Shown: positions 54,904 to 64,000, numbered from the stretch's first letter. The stretch is DNA of 64,000 bases from Myxococcota bacterium (GCA_052034865.1 JBPOIC010000014.1:1-64000); one strand, 5' to 3'. The notes: generated from the sequence alone by a model not told the origin. Program-made: numbers and translations.

Positions 54904-55536
54904 TCACTTAATGGACCCTGGCATTTTTTTAGGACCAAGATGTGGAGGAGGTTTGGAAGGTATGGCGGTTTGAGTCACACCTGCCTGTGGAGTTTTTTGA
55001 TTCTGAAGATTGCGTTTAATGGCGATGACCAATGATCGCGCGCGGTTGGCGTAGCTGCTGCGGCCTTCAGGGTCTTTGACGATCGCTTCACGAAAATCTT
55101 CGGCCGCTTTGCGAAAATTTTTGTGCAAAAGATAAATTTCTCCACGATGAACGCGGCTGGAAATATCGTCGGGGTTGTAGCGCAGGGCCTCTGAATATTC
55201 GAAGACGGCCTCCACGAATTTTTTCATCTTCTGATAAACACTTCCCAAAGCCGCATGGTAATAAAAATTGCGGTTATCCATTCTGACCAAACATTCAAAA
55301 ATGCGTTTGGCTTCATCGATGCGCCCATAAGTCATTTTTAAATGACCCATTTCGGCGACCTGAAAGAGATCTTTTTGGGGAATGCCGGTGAGCTCGGCGT
55401 AGGAAATCTCTTTGGTAAAATACTTGTAGAAGAGTTCGATGACGTACTTCTTGCGTTGAGGCGTTGGGTCGAAAATCTTGTTCTTCGCCTCGCCCGATAA
55501 ATTCGAGTATTTTAATCGATTCTGAAGTTCGCTCAA
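54904..55536 (-). CDS. TPR-type class II type III secretion chaperone (LcrH/SycD/CesD family)
   Basis: Three TPR units that align with Yersinia SycD: LxxISxxxLxxxxxxAxxxYxxGKxxxAxxxFxxLxxLDHxxxxxxxxLGAxxQxxxxxxxAxxxYSxAL. TTG start with AAAGG RBS. Confidence 0.7.
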   Translation of the reverse strand: MSELQNRLKYSNLSGEAKNKIFDPTPQRKKYVIELFYKYFTKEISYAELTGIPQKDLFQVAEMGHLKMTYGRIDEAKRIFECLVRMDNRNFYYHAALGSVYQKMKKFVEAVFEYSEALRYNPDDISSRVHRGEIYLLHKNFRKAAEDFREAIVKDPEGRSSYANRARSLVIAIKRNLQNQKTPQAGVTQTAIPSKPPPHLGPKKMPGSIK

Positions 55537-55573
55537 GGGGACCTTTAGTCTTTATCCCGAAGGATAGTGAAAA

Positions 55574-56608
55574 TTATCGGATATTATTACTGATCGTACG
55601 CACTGCTTGTGCATTGATATCCATAATGGATTTAATCATTTCCAAAAATTCGTTTCGCTTGGTCTGCATCGTGCGGATGTTGTCTAACAGCTCTTTCTCA
55701 TCTCCCTGAACGTCGCCTAACCTTTGCTGAAGGATATAGAGTTTTTTGGCTCCTTCCGGAGTGGTGGCATCAATGCCTTCCAACTCTGCCATGAGTTGTT
55801 GCTTGAGCTGCTTCATGGCCTGAAGATCGGCAAGGGCATTTCCCGTGACATTCTTATATTTTGATTCGTAACCCAAGGCGGCTTCCAGCCATCCATACGC
55901 AGGGTTATCCTGAGCAAAGTTTTGGTGCAGATAATCCGCCTCTTTGTGAATATCTCCATAACCGTAACCCGTTCCATAACCTGCGCCTGGAGGTGGCCCC
56001 GGAGGTGCTGGAGGAGCGCTGGGGGCATCATACCCGCCACCCGTAGACATTCCCTTTTTGCTGCTAATAACATTTTCATCTTCCCAACCTTCGAGATCCC
56101 ACTCTTCTCCGCTTTCGGGTGGGTTTGATGTTTCGCTTTTATAAGGAATAGGGTTTTGGCTGGGCTGCTGAACGACCTTTGTGGCAGACTCAGAGTAAAA
56201 CAGAAGGTGAAGGGCCTTGGCCTGATCTTTGGTGATAAGACCTGTTTTGGCGGCGACTTCGATGTTATTTAAAAAATCTTTGGGAAGACGTTTGCCATCA
56301 TCCAGAGTAAGCCTTGAGGTATCCCGAGCTTCAAAATGGGTTTCATAAAACTCGGAGGGATGTTCCAGTTGAGCCGGAAGGGCTTTGACATCCTTTTCGA
56401 CCATGCGATCACTTAAGGTCGTCATGTACTCACTGGCAGATCGCAGATAGGCCGTAATTGCAGGCCCCAGCTCTTTAAGGTCCATGCCCATTTTCTGGAG
56501 GGCTTTGTCGACGGCCTTGGTATCGACCTGCTTTAAGGCTTCACGGGCTGTACTATCGACACGACTGTTGATGGCTGTGAAAGTCTGGTTTTGAACTGCG
56601 CGTCCCAT
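55574..56608 (-). CDS. Hypothetical hydrophilic protein, candidate T3SS substrate (Gly/Tyr/Pro-rich linker)
   Basis: 344 aa, no TM segment. Central low-complexity stretch PPAPPGPPPGAGYGTGYGYG, coiled-coil C-terminus. Sits between two LcrH-class chaperone genes. Confidence 0.4.
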   Translation of the reverse strand: MGRAVQNQTFTAINSRVDSTAREALKQVDTKAVDKALQKMGMDLKELGPAITAYLRSASEYMTTLSDRMVEKDVKALPAQLEHPSEFYETHFEARDTSRLTLDDGKRLPKDFLNNIEVAAKTGLITKDQAKALHLLFYSESATKVVQQPSQNPIPYKSETSNPPESGEEWDLEGWEDENVISSKKGMSTGGGYDAPSAPPAPPGPPPGAGYGTGYGYGDIHKEADYLHQNFAQDNPAYGWLEAALGYESKYKNVTGNALADLQAMKQLKQQLMAELEGIDATTPEGAKKLYILQQRLGDVQGDEKELLDNIRTMQTKRNEFLEMIKSIMDINAQAVRTISNNIR

Positions 56609-56684
56609 GGGGTGATCCTTTCTTGGACTAGCACTCTAAAAATTCCCACATACACTCCCAAGGAGGGAGAGTCATAAAAACTTC

Positions 56685-57320
56685 TCACTTCTTTTGCTTC
56701 TGAATTTCTTCTTCAATTTTCTTCTTTAAAAATCGCGCCCGTACTGCCCAGGAGTTTTTGCTCGCCGGGTCGAGGACAATCGCGGAATTTAAATCATTTA
56801 AGGCCTCTTCGTTATTTTGAACCTTGTACCAAACTTCGCCTCGGTTGGCATAAGCAGCGACTTGCTTTGGATCAAAAAATAGGGCCGTCGAGTATTCTGT
56901 CAAGGCATCGAGCCATTTTGACTGACGTTGGTAAATGGCGCCCAAAACCAGGTGGTAGTAGGGTTGGCGATGATCAAGCCCACTGAGTCCTTTAAAAACC
57001 AACTCTGCTTCTTTGAACTTTCCTCGCTTGAACTGGAGGTGCCCAAACTCCGCCATTTTAAAAAGATGGGTCGGAGAAATTCCTTTCAGTTGAGCCCAAT
57101 TGATTTCTCCCTGGATAAACTTCTCAATTTGCTGAGCTAACTCTTCGGTTTGTTTTGGATCGATCGAATCGAGCAGGGCAATAAACTGACTTAAACGCTC
57201 GTTATTTTTTTTCCATTGCTCTGGGTTCTTTTTTTCTGCCTCAGCCTCGAGTTGTTTTTCGTGTGCCAGCTCTTCGGGTGAAAGACCAGCATCGGGATCG
57301 AATGGTAAATCCTGAGTCAT
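56685..57320 (-). CDS. TPR-type class II type III secretion chaperone (LcrH/SycD family), paralog 2
   Basis: The segment LKGISPTHLFKMAEFGHLQFKRGKFKEAELVFKGLSGLDHRQPYYHLVLGAIYQRQSKWLDALTEYS matches the SycD core. It also parallels 54904-55536. Confidence 0.7.
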   Translation of the reverse strand: MTQDLPFDPDAGLSPEELAHEKQLEAEAEKKNPEQWKKNNERLSQFIALLDSIDPKQTEELAQQIEKFIQGEINWAQLKGISPTHLFKMAEFGHLQFKRGKFKEAELVFKGLSGLDHRQPYYHLVLGAIYQRQSKWLDALTEYSTALFFDPKQVAAYANRGEVWYKVQNNEEALNDLNSAIVLDPASKNSWAVRARFLKKKIEEEIQKQKK

Positions 57321-62614: not shown

Positions 62615-62615
62615 A

Positions 62616-63479
62616 TTAACCTAAAAACTGGACACGAATCTGGGAAATGGCGACTCCGCGGTCTTGCAATTCTTCTCCGATTTCCATTTTCTGAGATTCG
62701 AACTGTCTTTTGATGTTTGGATTTCCGGTTAAAAAAGCGACCTCAATTTTGCCGTTGTTGGAGGTGACCTTTAAAGACAGACCCTGATAGATTTTGTCGG
62801 AGAGATCAATCTGAATTTCCTTGTTGAGGTTTTTATCTCGTCCAATGCGGATATATTGGACAATCTGATCCAAAATTTGTTTGGGAATTTTTCCCGCTTC
62901 GGGAGCGGCTGCTGATTTGATGGCAAAGGATGTCGAGGTTTTCTGAAGTGTGGCCATACCAGGAACCCCAATCGCATCGGTCGCAGCAATCCCTTTTTGT
63001 TTAACTAAACCCTGACCAAACTGTTTGGAAGAACCACCACTGCCTCCTTCCGAATTTTGAGAGCCACCCTGAGATTGTCCTCCGAGATTATTTTTTCCCA
63101 AAACCTTATGTTTGGATCCGATGTCCTGATGGGAACGGCTTACGGATTTTCCTTCGGAGGAGTCGGTTTTTTTATCTCCATCTTTGTCTTTTTTCCTGTC
63201 TGAAGATTGGTCTCGATCCCGATCGCGATCGGATAAAACGTCTTTAAGACGGGAATCGAATTTTGCAGTTTCGGTATTCGCAGAAGGTTTGTTGGAGGAG
63301 AGTTGATCCAGTACCTGATCAAAAGCGCTCTTGGCCTCTTTCGTTTGCGCTTTTTGTCCGGCCTGCTGGGTCGCCTGCGCTGTCGAAGCCTGGTTTTTTG
63401 ATTTTACATTGGCCTTGTTTTGATCCTGCTTTGCTGCTTCGGCATTGGCATTGTAACGATTGCCTTCATCGATACGCAT
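62616..63479 (-). CDS. fliK: FliK/SctP-like hook-length/substrate-specificity-switch protein (C-terminal T3S4-like domain)
   Basis: 287 aa. Disordered Q/K/D/S-rich N-terminal two thirds, then a C-terminal globular region (ILDQIVQYIRIG...IQIDLSDKIYQGLSLKVTSNNGKIEVAFLTGNPNIKRQFESQKMEIGEELQDRGVAISQIRV) like the FliK/YscP C-domain. AAAGGA RBS. Confidence 0.55.
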   Translation of the reverse strand: MRIDEGNRYNANAEAAKQDQNKANVKSKNQASTAQATQQAGQKAQTKEAKSAFDQVLDQLSSNKPSANTETAKFDSRLKDVLSDRDRDRDQSSDRKKDKDGDKKTDSSEGKSVSRSHQDIGSKHKVLGKNNLGGQSQGGSQNSEGGSGGSSKQFGQGLVKQKGIAATDAIGVPGMATLQKTSTSFAIKSAAAPEAGKIPKQILDQIVQYIRIGRDKNLNKEIQIDLSDKIYQGLSLKVTSNNGKIEVAFLTGNPNIKRQFESQKMEIGEELQDRGVAISQIRVQFLG

Positions 63480-63568
63480 ATAAATCCTTTCGTAGATAAT
63501 CTCTCTGACAGGAGAATGTTTCTCCCTTTCACTTTGCTTGAGTCTCCCCCTATTTCACCAGAGGATTT

Positions 63569-64000
63569 TTATGATTTCATGTGCTTGAGCTGGTGGACGA
63601 CATTCGCAAGCTCACCCAGCTCTTTTTCTTCTTTGGCATCAAGTAGTTTCTTGATCTGCTTCATCCAAAGCTCTTTGTGCTTTTCCATCATTTGCAGATC
63701 GCGGGAGGCATCGATAAAATCGCGCCTGGATTTTTTCACACCATCCTCGGCCTCCTGAATGGCCTCATTTTGATATTCGATCTCTCGTTCTTTCTCTGTC
63801 AGATCATCCTGTAATTTTTCAAGATAGTTCAGATGGAGTCCTGAATCGTAAACACGTGTCTCTCCAGAAACGACATGCTGGGTCATCTTGCGACGTGCGT
63901 TGATTTTGGACTGGATGATGTCTTCTTTTTGCTTTTCCAACTCTTTCAGTTTTTCTTTTTGCTCTTCGAGATGTTTGATTGCGCGCGCTAGGGCAATCTG
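63569..64000 (-). CDS. FliJ/SctO-like coiled-coil export protein, 5'-truncated by the window edge
   Basis: Highly charged, all-helical sequence (EKLQDDLTEKEREIEYQNEAIQEAE...). The reading frame is open to position 64000. Lies immediately upstream of the fliK-like gene, as in fliI-fliJ-fliK / sctN-sctO-sctP orders. Confidence 0.45.
   Translation of the reverse strand, partial: QIALARAIKHLEEQKEKLKELEKQKEDIIQSKINARRKMTQHVVSGETRVYDSGLHLNYLEKLQDDLTEKEREIEYQNEAIQEAEDGVKKSRRDFIDASRDLQMMEKHKELWMKQIKKLLDAKEEKELGELANVVHQLKHMKS

Follow-up and report, generated by a model that had tools for sequence, protein, structure and literature searches.

What kind of secretion machine is encoded by a locus in which genes of flagellar type run directly into genes for injectisome-type chaperones? 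The question is raised by positions 54,904 to 64,000 of a 64,000-nucleotide (nt) stretch of DNA from a Myxococcota bacterium (GCA_052034865.1 JBPOIC010000014.1:1-64000), which was analysed as a whole and is called the window below. An earlier note on this DNA had described the locus as a flagellar-type export gate followed by LcrH/SycD chaperones and hydrophilic, substrate-like open reading frames (ORFs). Here we propose that the locus probably encodes a deep-branching type III secretion system of the non-flagellar kind (NF-T3SS) that retains a flagellar-type C-ring, FliO and sigma-28 control of its late genes. Domains were assigned by hidden Markov model (HMM) searches of Pfam and NCBIfam against curated cutoffs. 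All twelve minus-strand ORFs listed earlier were found at the same coordinates and as tightly packed as described: the FliM-like ORF (61679-62614) and FliN (61266-61679) overlap by one base, and the FliK-like ORF (62616-63479) ends at 62616, one base before the start of the FliM-like ORF. In the order of transcription, they are:

63569..64000, minus strand: SctO/FliJ-type stalk protein, running off the window end (~167 residues in relatives)
62616..63479, minus strand: FliK/SctP-like protein, candidate ruler and substrate-specificity-switch protein, 287 residues (Flg_hook match and position)
61679..62614, minus strand: FliM homologue, 311 residues (Pfam FliM, TIGR01397)
61266..61679, minus strand: FliN / SctQ-C type SpoA-domain protein, 137 residues, a separate gene as in flagella (FliMN_C)
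60729..61103, minus strand: FliO, 124 residues, one transmembrane (TM) segment at residues 24-57 (Pfam FliO, TIGR03500)
59859..60653, minus strand: SctR, injectisome subtype (NF009438, TIGR01102)
59563..59838, minus strand: SctS/FliQ gate subunit, 91 residues (fliQ and SctS models)
58711..59553, minus strand: SctT/FliR gate subunit, 280 residues (Bac_export_1)
57501..58550, minus strand: subA, hydrophilic putative secreted protein, 349 residues (no family)
56685..57320, minus strand: TPR chaperone 1, LcrH/SycD-like, 211 residues (TIGR02552)
55574..56608, minus strand: subB, hydrophilic putative secreted protein, 344 residues (no family)
54904..55536, minus strand: TPR chaperone 2, LcrH/SycD-like, 210 residues (TIGR02552)

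A large protein collection contained ~35 relatives of the FliM-like protein, and their alignment, used as a query, recovered 33 loci in GTDB species-representative genomes, with a best FliM identity of 57%. All 33 lie in metagenome-assembled genomes labelled Deltaproteobacteria, UBA10199, Bdellovibrio / Pseudobdellovibrionaceae, Myxococcales or 'Pseudomonadota'. A second scan of JGI metagenomes with a SctJ alignment yielded 71 further loci and extended the map upstream. By ORF calling and clustering, the conserved order in these relatives begins with ArgJ at the border, followed by SctV, a double-FHA protein and a TPR protein that are both encoded on the reverse strand, a ~700-residue FHA-TM-PEGA protein, the small helical protein u92, the Gly-rich protein u160b, a small TPR protein, SctJ, u167 and u120. 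It continues through a FliA/WhiG-family sigma factor, u160, a FliG-like protein, SctL, SctN, SctO and the FliK-like protein to the part seen in the window, namely FliM, FliN, FliO, SctR, SctS, SctT, subA, TPR, subB and TPR, after which come a convergent FHA-domain sigma-54 activator and a PEGA-domain Ser/Thr kinase. This gene order was kept in the 33 GTDB species loci and the 71 metagenome loci, while the proteins have diverged to 25-60% identity.

Because the conserved order continues upstream, comparison with the relatives indicates that what lies in the window is just the 3′ half of a type III secretion cluster of ~30 kb, which is conserved and native to the chromosome. The locus has a G+C content of 0.45-0.46, the same as the rest of the window, suggesting that it is native and no recent island, and window positions 1-50000 carry housekeeping genes including SMC, SecA, LigA and RecN. 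The flanking ORFs in relatives (ArgJ, RecQ, Rho, ThiF, a thioredoxin protein and YkuD) have no relation to type III secretion and mark the cluster borders. In one relative only (L008), a YkuD L,D-transpeptidase gene (L008:17384-17881) stands directly after the second chaperone gene, and could be a peptidoglycan-remodelling accessory or a mere neighbour. From the relatives, we infer that the same genome carries, upstream of the window, SctV, the FHA-TM-PEGA protein, a YscE-like/needle-like/YscG-like trio, SctJ, the FliA-family sigma factor, a weakly SctI-like protein, FliG, SctL and SctN.

The export gate does not type as flagellar. SctR of the window passed the injectisome models NF009438 (255.5 bits, cutoff 179) and TIGR01102 yscR (232.9 bits, cutoff 208.6) and remained under the cutoff of fliP (206.5 bits, cutoff 217.45). 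Likewise, SctV of the relatives, whose gene (L035:1732-3846) lies ~6 kb upstream of the needle-like one, scored 798 bits with hrcV/SctV (cutoff 692) and 704 bits with FlhA (cutoff 772). On the profiles of these two proteins, the gate is of the injectisome subtype, and the earlier labels of a flagellar-type gate and of 'fliP' have to be given up; SctO and SctJ are also of injectisome type. The signal-peptide-like N-terminus ascribed to this protein stands, since SctR carries an N-terminal extension of ~40 residues, including MSFLALMISVSLHTYAQG, that is signal-peptide-like as in FliP. To place SctR, we combined a full-library phmmer search with distance clustering. SctR of the window fell in a cluster of proteins that type as SctR, as do the neighbouring cluster representatives, at distances of 0.97-1.05 to the other SctR clusters versus 1.09 to true FliP, in agreement with the expectation that the locus falls outside ordinary flagellar clades. 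Its cluster is also the nearest of the SctR clusters to FliP (1.09, the others 1.16-1.28), which is consistent with an early-branching position without proving one.

The other gate subunits are shared ground. SctS scored above the cutoffs of both fliQ (93.8 bits) and SctS (86.0 bits), and its start is most likely the ATG at 59838, preceded by GGAG 10 nt upstream, which replaces the previous assignment at 59913. SctT matched Pfam Bac_export_1 with 165 bits, and the SctT and FliR models with 122.6 and 118.9 bits, both under their cutoffs. FliO was well supported (Pfam FliO 44.4 bits, cutoff 22; TIGR03500 48.6 bits). The ORF at 63569-64000, formerly called 'fliJ-like', is better named SctO, with 54.2 bits for Pfam YscO-like (cutoff 27) and 20.4 bits for FliJ, under its cutoff. 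Between SctO and FliM/SctQ, the canonical ruler position, lies the FliK-like gene, whose product has a low-complexity N-terminal part and a conserved C-terminal domain with a match to Pfam Flg_hook, the FliK C-terminal domain (22.1 bits, E 1.4e-4, sub-threshold). The orthologue at L008 reached 28.8 bits with Flg_hook, together with a weak HpaP match, while the family profile found no match among PDB sequences.

The cytoplasmic ring, by contrast to the gate, is flagellar in kind. The FliM homologue matched Pfam FliM with 85.5 bits and TIGR01397 fliM_switch with 100.7 bits, versus 17.7 bits for the SctQ model, keeps the LGGxG motif, and as a family profile retrieved only FliM structures from the PDB sequences (best E 5.8e-20), with no SctQ. 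Because the protein begins at the conserved PYxF segment, it is missing the N-terminal CheY-P binding peptide in both the window sequence and the family consensus, judged against the LSQxEIDALL-type peptide of E. coli FliM. FliN matched Pfam FliMN_C with 71.8 bits, and SpaO_YscQ (84.9 bits) and fliN (70.1 bits) both under their cutoffs. In the relatives, a FliG homologue occupies the SctK position; its Pfam matches are weak (E 6e-4), and the family profile retrieved only FliG from the PDB sequences (E 8e-8), with the EHPQ segment of FliG aligned to ESPR. In place of the SctQ/SctK sorting platform of the injectisome subtype, the cluster thus has the homologous families of the flagellar subtype, FliM, a separate FliN and FliG, of which FliM and FliN, together with FliO, are in the window and FliG is in the relatives. 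The FliG and SctK families share one Pfam clan (bioRxiv 10.1101/2025.03.14.643159). As separate observations on this region, the fliN-fliO spacer of the window is unusually long (162 nt; none or shorter, ≤86 nt, in relatives), and the 3′ end of fliN contains a weak sigma-54-like motif, TGGCAAGCTGATTGCG, at 61314-61329 (minus strand), ~210 nt upstream of fliO and in agreement with the consensus at 9 of 11 positions.

Of the membrane-ring proteins, SctJ falls on the injectisome side again. In the relatives, it scored 135 bits with TIGR02544 versus 39.5 bits with FliF; its N-terminus is lipoprotein-like, with a Cys that follows a signal-like sequence, and a TM segment lies at its C-terminus. SctL and SctN are also present in relatives. 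The FHA-TM-PEGA protein combines an N-terminal FHA domain (Yop-YscD_cpl 61 bits), one TM segment and a periplasmic TPR/PEGA part in a SctD-like topology, without the canonical SctD periplasmic domain. Of the genes that the earlier note had proposed to look for beyond the window, the relatives' loci yielded SctN, SctV and SctJ and came back empty for SctU and the secretin: neither the window nor any of 105 loci (1.06 Mb) had an ORF with an NPTH-type motif, the Pfam/NCBIfam scans of flanking genes gave no SctU, which may have its gene at another place in the genome, and no secretin (SctC) was found in the window or within 10 kb on either side of the cluster in relatives. The claim that the 64-kb window has no hook, rod, FlhB or secretin gene was borne out by the scans.

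Flagellar features recur in the regulation of the cluster, for which the following elements of the window and its relatives are relevant:

58596..58624, minus strand: sigma-28 (FliA)-type promoter, GCAACTT-N14-GCCGATAA, 46 nt upstream of the subA start codon
53361..54764, plus strand: FHA-domain sigma-54 enhancer-binding protein, convergent conserved neighbour (HMM matches and position)
50210..53020, plus strand: Ser/Thr protein kinase with seven PEGA domains (Pkinase 123 bits; PEGA 240 bits in 7 stretches)
L014:14680, L015:13990, L023:14690, L033:6559, L034:14678, L010:7825, and also L016:4015, L030:4006, L085:11988, L101:11552: sigma-54-type sites in relatives

Alignment of the window with eight relatives over the intergenic region that precedes subA revealed the element GCAACTT-N13/14-(G)CCGATAA, at the same position before subA in all close relatives, whose −10 part is the sigma-28 (FliA) consensus of E. 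coli, Bacillus and Chlamydia work. The element occurs once in the 64 kb of the window and in none of 100 shuffles, and across the loci it precedes subA, the needle-like gene and u167, with 10 instances each, at 0-115 nt from the start codon except for one subA instance at 410 nt. A scan of 54.5-64 kb for sigma-70 promoters and terminators gave counts no different from shuffles. The relatives' cluster also encodes a FliA/WhiG-family sigma factor (TIGR02479 139 bits, under the cutoff of 189.6). The conserved promoter positions, together with this cluster-encoded factor, point to flagellar-style control of late genes, in which the sigma factor of the cluster is predicted to use these sites for the late exported components, and on this pattern subA-TPR-subB-TPR forms a separate operon with its own sigma-28-type promoter.

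At the 3′ border, the kinase and the FHA sigma-54 activator are adjacent and conserved in relatives, and PEGA/FHA proteins also occur at the 5′ side. The activator matched Pfam Sigma54_activat (229 bits), FHA (67 bits) and HTH_8, and its FHA domain also matches the model of the YscD cytoplasmic domain of type III secretion systems (Yop-YscD_cpl, 66 bits); it is the likely regulator of the cluster, with the kinase as its likely input. In a distant subgroup, near-consensus sigma-54 promoters, TGGCAC-N5-TTGCA, replace the sigma-28-type element before c22, the positional equivalent of subA, and in some loci a promoter of this type also precedes the sigma-28 gene. These promoters fit the neighbouring activator and kinase and, by their positions before c22 and some sigma-28 genes, suggest a cascade from the kinase through the FHA activator and sigma-54 to sigma-28 that has been rewired between the subgroups.

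One of the genes with the sigma-28-type promoter in relatives encodes the Gly-rich protein u160b, which ends in ...SNIxKADHDARxxxIRNFRS. With four needle sequences as the reference, its last 35 residues could be aligned from end to end to the needle proteins' C-terminal helix (34% identity, hhalign E 1.9e-4); it has a PDB fragment match at E 0.086 and no Pfam match. Its neighbours are the small helical protein u92 and a TPR protein matching LcrH_SycD, CdsG and SctY, so that, as read from gene order and similarity, u92, u160b and the TPR protein form a yscE-yscF-yscG-like arrangement of YscE-like, needle-like and YscG-like genes. Further downstream, u160 is weakly SctI-like (PF17001 matched 4 of its 18 members, with E 0.046 at best). 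Two other conserved small proteins, u167 (L008:2968-3471 and orthologues) and u120 (L008:3494-3856), lie between SctJ and the sigma gene and belong to no detectable family. Given its richness in Gly and a sigma-28-type promoter of its own, u167 is probably a further exported component or a FlgM-like regulator; the profiles of u167 and u160 found no match among PDB sequences.

How far is such a system already known? Secretin-less systems of Myxococcales, which lack SctF and FliG, were described as the earliest NF-T3SS branch and as a flagellum-to-injectisome intermediate by Abby and Rocha 2012 (PMC3459982). The cluster of M. xanthus, termed T3SS*, contains SctD, J, I, Q, RSTUV, N and L and several LcrH homologues (PMC10433427) and works with a Tad-like pilus in predation (PMC12075869), and FliO was reported in NF-T3SS operons of Myxococcota in 2025 (PMC12248157). 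This needle-less T3SS*, or 'Myxo' NF-T3SS (M. xanthus MXAN_2434-2464 and a short locus; Abby and Rocha 2012; Thiery et al. 2022), is the closest known system. Like it, the present cluster belongs to a secretin-less NF-T3SS of 'deltaproteobacterial' lineages and would be an early-branching flagellum/injectisome intermediate, with SctJ, SctL, SctN, SctR/S/T, SctV, FliO, several LcrH-type TPR proteins and FHA/sigma-54-type regulators, and the weakly SctI-like protein u160 may parallel the SctI of the published gene content.

These likenesses raise the alternative that our locus is a member of the described Myxo group, used with a Tad-like pilus in contact-dependent killing or lysis of prey bacteria, and that only the host lineage is new. 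The shared traits (no secretin, FliO, several LcrH homologues, FHA/TPR/sigma-54 regulators and 'deltaproteobacterial' hosts; PMC3459982, PMC10433427, PMC12248157) speak for it, as do the hosts, of which one is labelled uncultured Myxococcales and others Bdellovibrio-like, both predatory lineages; moreover, the Pfam matches of the FliG-like proteins are so weak that the 2012 survey could have missed such genes. However, Myxo systems, according to their published descriptions, lack FliG and SctF, have SctU and SctV in the cluster, and use SctQ and not FliM and FliN. Compared with those descriptions, the present cluster has clear FliG and FliM homologues and a separate FliN in place of SctK/SctQ, conserved sigma-28-type promoters together with a sigma factor of the FliA family, YscE-like and YscG-like genes on either side of a needle-like gene, an FHA-TM-PEGA protein for the canonical SctD, and no SctU, and no Tad genes occur within 10 kb of any locus. 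Membership in the Myxo group is an alternative that we regard as doubtful.

The earlier suggestion that the system may be undescribed holds in part. Our literature search found no paper on this cluster with FliG/FliM homologues, a needle-like gene and sigma-28 promoters, none tying UBA10199 to type III secretion, and none on an NF-T3SS with FliG/FliM, whereas secretin-less intermediate systems with FliO and LcrH homologues had already been published (PMC3459982, PMC10433427, PMC12248157). What is new are the clear FliG/FliM homologues with a separate FliN, the sigma-28 promoter logic, the needle-like trio with YscE/G-like partners, the FHA-TM-PEGA analogue of SctD and the paralogous pair of chaperoned substrates.

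The system also shares with canonical injectisomes (Ysc, Inv-Mxi-Spa and the Chlamydiales Cds) the SctJ lipoprotein ring, SctV, SctR/S/T, SctL-N-O, a ruler at the SctP position, the yscE-yscF-yscG-like order, and class II-like TPR chaperones encoded beside presumed substrates. Chlamydiae, moreover, use a sigma-28 factor for late genes. In contrast to these injectisomes, the cluster has no secretin, no SctU and no recognisable tip protein or hydrophobic translocators, has FliG/FliM/FliN for SctK/SctQ, and includes FliO and a FliP-like signal-peptide extension on SctR.

TIGR02552 LcrH_SycD was the top NCBIfam model for both TPR proteins, with 69 bits for chaperone 1 (E 3e-19, model positions 2-128 of 136) and 70.5 bits for chaperone 2 (E 1e-19, positions 3-132 of 136; SicA and SscA weaker), in addition to Pfam TPR_1/2/11 matches, and chaperone 1 matched PcrH (1.4e-6), AcrH (2e-6) and SycD (1.9e-4) in the PDB. 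Like LcrH/SycD/IpgC class II chaperones, they are all-TPR proteins, cover their best model near full length, and are encoded right after the presumed cargo, an order of cargo then chaperone that is invariant in relatives, with the pairing fixed at every locus. They differ from those chaperones in ~60-70 extra N-terminal residues, in their sub-cutoff scores, and in a cargo without TM helices and the P/VxLxxP motif. The earlier reading of LcrH/SycD chaperones beside substrate-like ORFs is therefore upheld as to the best model, while the scores stay under the cutoff of 104.8 and the ORFs lack the TM segments and motif of canonical translocators.

The cargo proteins subA and subB, a paralogous pair of coiled-coil type, matched no Pfam, NCBIfam or PDB sequence, and on these searches belong to no described family. 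No segment exceeded the TM threshold in either protein, and no orthologue had a P/VxLxxP motif, so that the TM helices and class II chaperone-binding motif of hydrophobic translocators (SctE/SctB) were not found in them. Their N-terminal regions are low-complexity and variable in the alignments: subA has a variable, disordered N-terminal half and a conserved, helical C-terminal half, and subB has a conserved N-terminal domain, a Pro/Gly/Tyr-rich linker and a C-terminal helical hairpin. The C-terminal ~100 residues of the two are homologous (hhalign probability 95%, E 3.4e-8), their positional equivalents in the distant subgroup, c22 and c25, share a homologous C-terminal domain, and c25 shows a weak C-terminal likeness to the needle-like protein's own C-terminus (E 3.7e-4). 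A likeness of the subB C-terminus (...AVRTISNNIR) to that of PrgI, noticed by eye, was rejected at hhalign E 0.05-0.19.

Structure prediction, proposed earlier for these ORFs, gave usable C-terminal helices and was poor elsewhere. AlphaFold2, run on a single sequence for subA and on a two-sequence alignment for subB, for which a homologue search had returned the query itself and one 39% relative, predicted three long helices at 179-333 of subA (predicted local distance difference test score (pLDDT) 65-80; overall pLDDT 56) and a hairpin of 236-277 and 284-343 in subB (pLDDT ~70; overall pLDDT 40, the remainder at low confidence). Foldseek searches of the models against the PDB returned only generic long-helix matches (AhlC, the IpaB coiled coil, BAR and SMC arms), none below E 0.1.

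We propose that subA and subB are chaperoned late substrates and probably distal structural parts, which is the weakest step of our explanation. Alternatively, they may be effectors, or regulators that are themselves secreted (a gatekeeper or an anti-sigma-type partner, for example), with the freed TPR proteins doubling as transcriptional co-activators, in the way that class II chaperones serve as co-activators in the Shigella IpgC-MxiE and Salmonella SicA-InvF pairs. Such a role would suit proteins without a TM segment, a translocator chaperone-binding motif or a match to a tip or translocon fold, and with long, disordered and fast-evolving N-terminal regions. It is harder to reconcile with the conserved C-terminal helical hairpin that is paralogous between subA and subB, the weak likeness of the hairpin of the distant subgroup to the needle-like C-terminus, the shared promoter type by which subA and subB are co-regulated with the needle-like gene, and a position and pairing that are fixed at every locus, as for machine parts and not for effectors; we consider it unlikely.

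Might the locus, after all, be a rearranged ordinary flagellar export operon followed by unrelated TPR genes? Its order FliG-FliH-FliI-FliJ-FliK-FliM-FliN-FliO-FliP-FliQ-FliR is the ancestral flagellar one, the FliG, FliM, FliN and FliO homologues, the FliA-type sigma factor for late exported components and the promoter with its GCCGATAA-type −10 element are hallmarks of the flagellum, and the L008 ATPase passes the FliI model (645 bits, cutoff 630), besides the SctN model. Against this, SctR, SctV, SctJ and SctO type as injectisome proteins, under the flagellar cutoffs, with SctJ standing for FliF and SctV for FlhA. In addition, FliF, FlhA/FlhB, flgB/C/D/E/F/G, the filament, fliE, fliL and motAB are absent from the conserved cluster in ~100 loci of 20-30 kb each, FliM has no CheY-binding N-terminus, and the TPR proteins are not of the FlgN/FliS/FliT types and are always paired with subA/subB under the cluster-specific promoter. 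The mosaic perceived earlier is thus real, with FliM, FliN, FliO and a FliP-like signal peptide beside LcrH/SycD-like chaperones and their hydrophilic partners in the window, and FliG and a FliA-type sigma factor in relatives, and its reading as a flagellar operon is very improbable and largely refuted. Least credible of all is a decaying, functionless relic, to which the missing SctU and secretin might be put down, given intact ORFs, a gene order kept despite divergence to 25-60% identity and conserved promoters, the same argument by which Abby and Rocha rejected decay of the Myxo systems (PMC3459982).

In the deep-branching NF-T3SS that we favour, the SctJ ring and the FHA-TM-PEGA protein would house the SctRST(+V) gate, with FliO helping its assembly. 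We propose that a non-rotating FliG-FliM-FliN ring in the cytoplasm would act as the sorting platform, docking SctL-SctN-SctO; FliM lacks the CheY-binding peptide, and the cluster has no Mot genes. The FliK/SctP-like protein would switch the substrate class, whereupon the cluster's own sigma-28-type factor would transcribe the genes for the needle-like protein, u167, subA and subB, mirroring flagellar class-3 control. The TPR proteins would keep subA and subB in the cytoplasm until export, where the two most likely form or cap a distal exported structure, as an analogue of the tip or translocon rather than as enzymatic effectors. The route from the Ser/Thr kinase to the FHA sigma-54 activator probably gives the top-level signal.

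Several observations weigh against this explanation. With neither SctU/FlhB (in the window and 1.06 Mb of related loci) nor a secretin found in the cluster, the completeness of the machine is unproven. The upstream half rests on synteny in relatives at 49-57% FliM identity, and the FliK-like, SctI-like and needle-like assignments are all sub-threshold. Both TPR proteins score under the LcrH_SycD equivalog cutoff of 104.8, and generic TPR proteins outscore PcrH, AcrH and SycD in the PDB search of chaperone 1. Finally, subA and subB have no TM segment, P/VxLxxP motif or significant fold match, making their structural role a guess.

The origin of the injectisome from the flagellum has been argued from very few intermediates, essentially the Myxococcales systems. 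Tentatively, and with less confidence than in the system itself, we suggest that the cluster represents an undescribed deep-branching class of type III secretion systems, widespread in uncultured UBA10199-, Bdellovibrionota- and Myxococcota-type bacteria, in a state between flagellum and injectisome. If so, it would already possess SctJ/SctD-like rings, a gate of injectisome type, an axial protein of needle type along with YscE/G-like chaperones, and distal substrates chaperoned by TPR proteins, while the FliG-FliM-FliN C-ring would predate the change of FliG into SctK and of FliM/FliN into SctQ, with FliO, the FliP-type signal peptide and sigma-28 control retained. Such a class would add to the Myxo systems a second and more flagellum-like 'missing link', and would reveal the order in which parts were exchanged. 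With its mix of injectisome-type and flagellum-type parts, the cluster usefully illustrates, in living bacteria, a possible path from flagella to injectisomes.

The lineage offers testable material on which parts were swapped first, on the conversion of a rotating switch complex into a static sorting platform and the relation of SctK/SctQ to FliG and FliM/FliN, and on what a secretin-less system exports, and where to. In this respect, subA and subB are candidates for a new kind of distal component, and the uncultured, possibly predatory hosts mean that the system may bear on bacterial predation.

Elsewhere in the window, three ORFs stood out. A 507-residue ORF at 41363-42886 (minus strand) matches the ribonucleotide reductase barrel domain over only ~100 residues (E 2e-24), suggesting a truncated or unusual enzyme of this type. 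At 20256-22565 (minus strand), a 769-residue glycosyltransferase of family 20 (trehalose-6-phosphate synthase type) carries an N-terminal extension of ~280 residues without a Pfam match. The third, at 6668-8656 (plus strand), encodes a radical SAM protein of 662 residues with an HMPTM-type N-terminal zinc ribbon and adjoins a MASE1-PAS histidine kinase gene (4467-6509).

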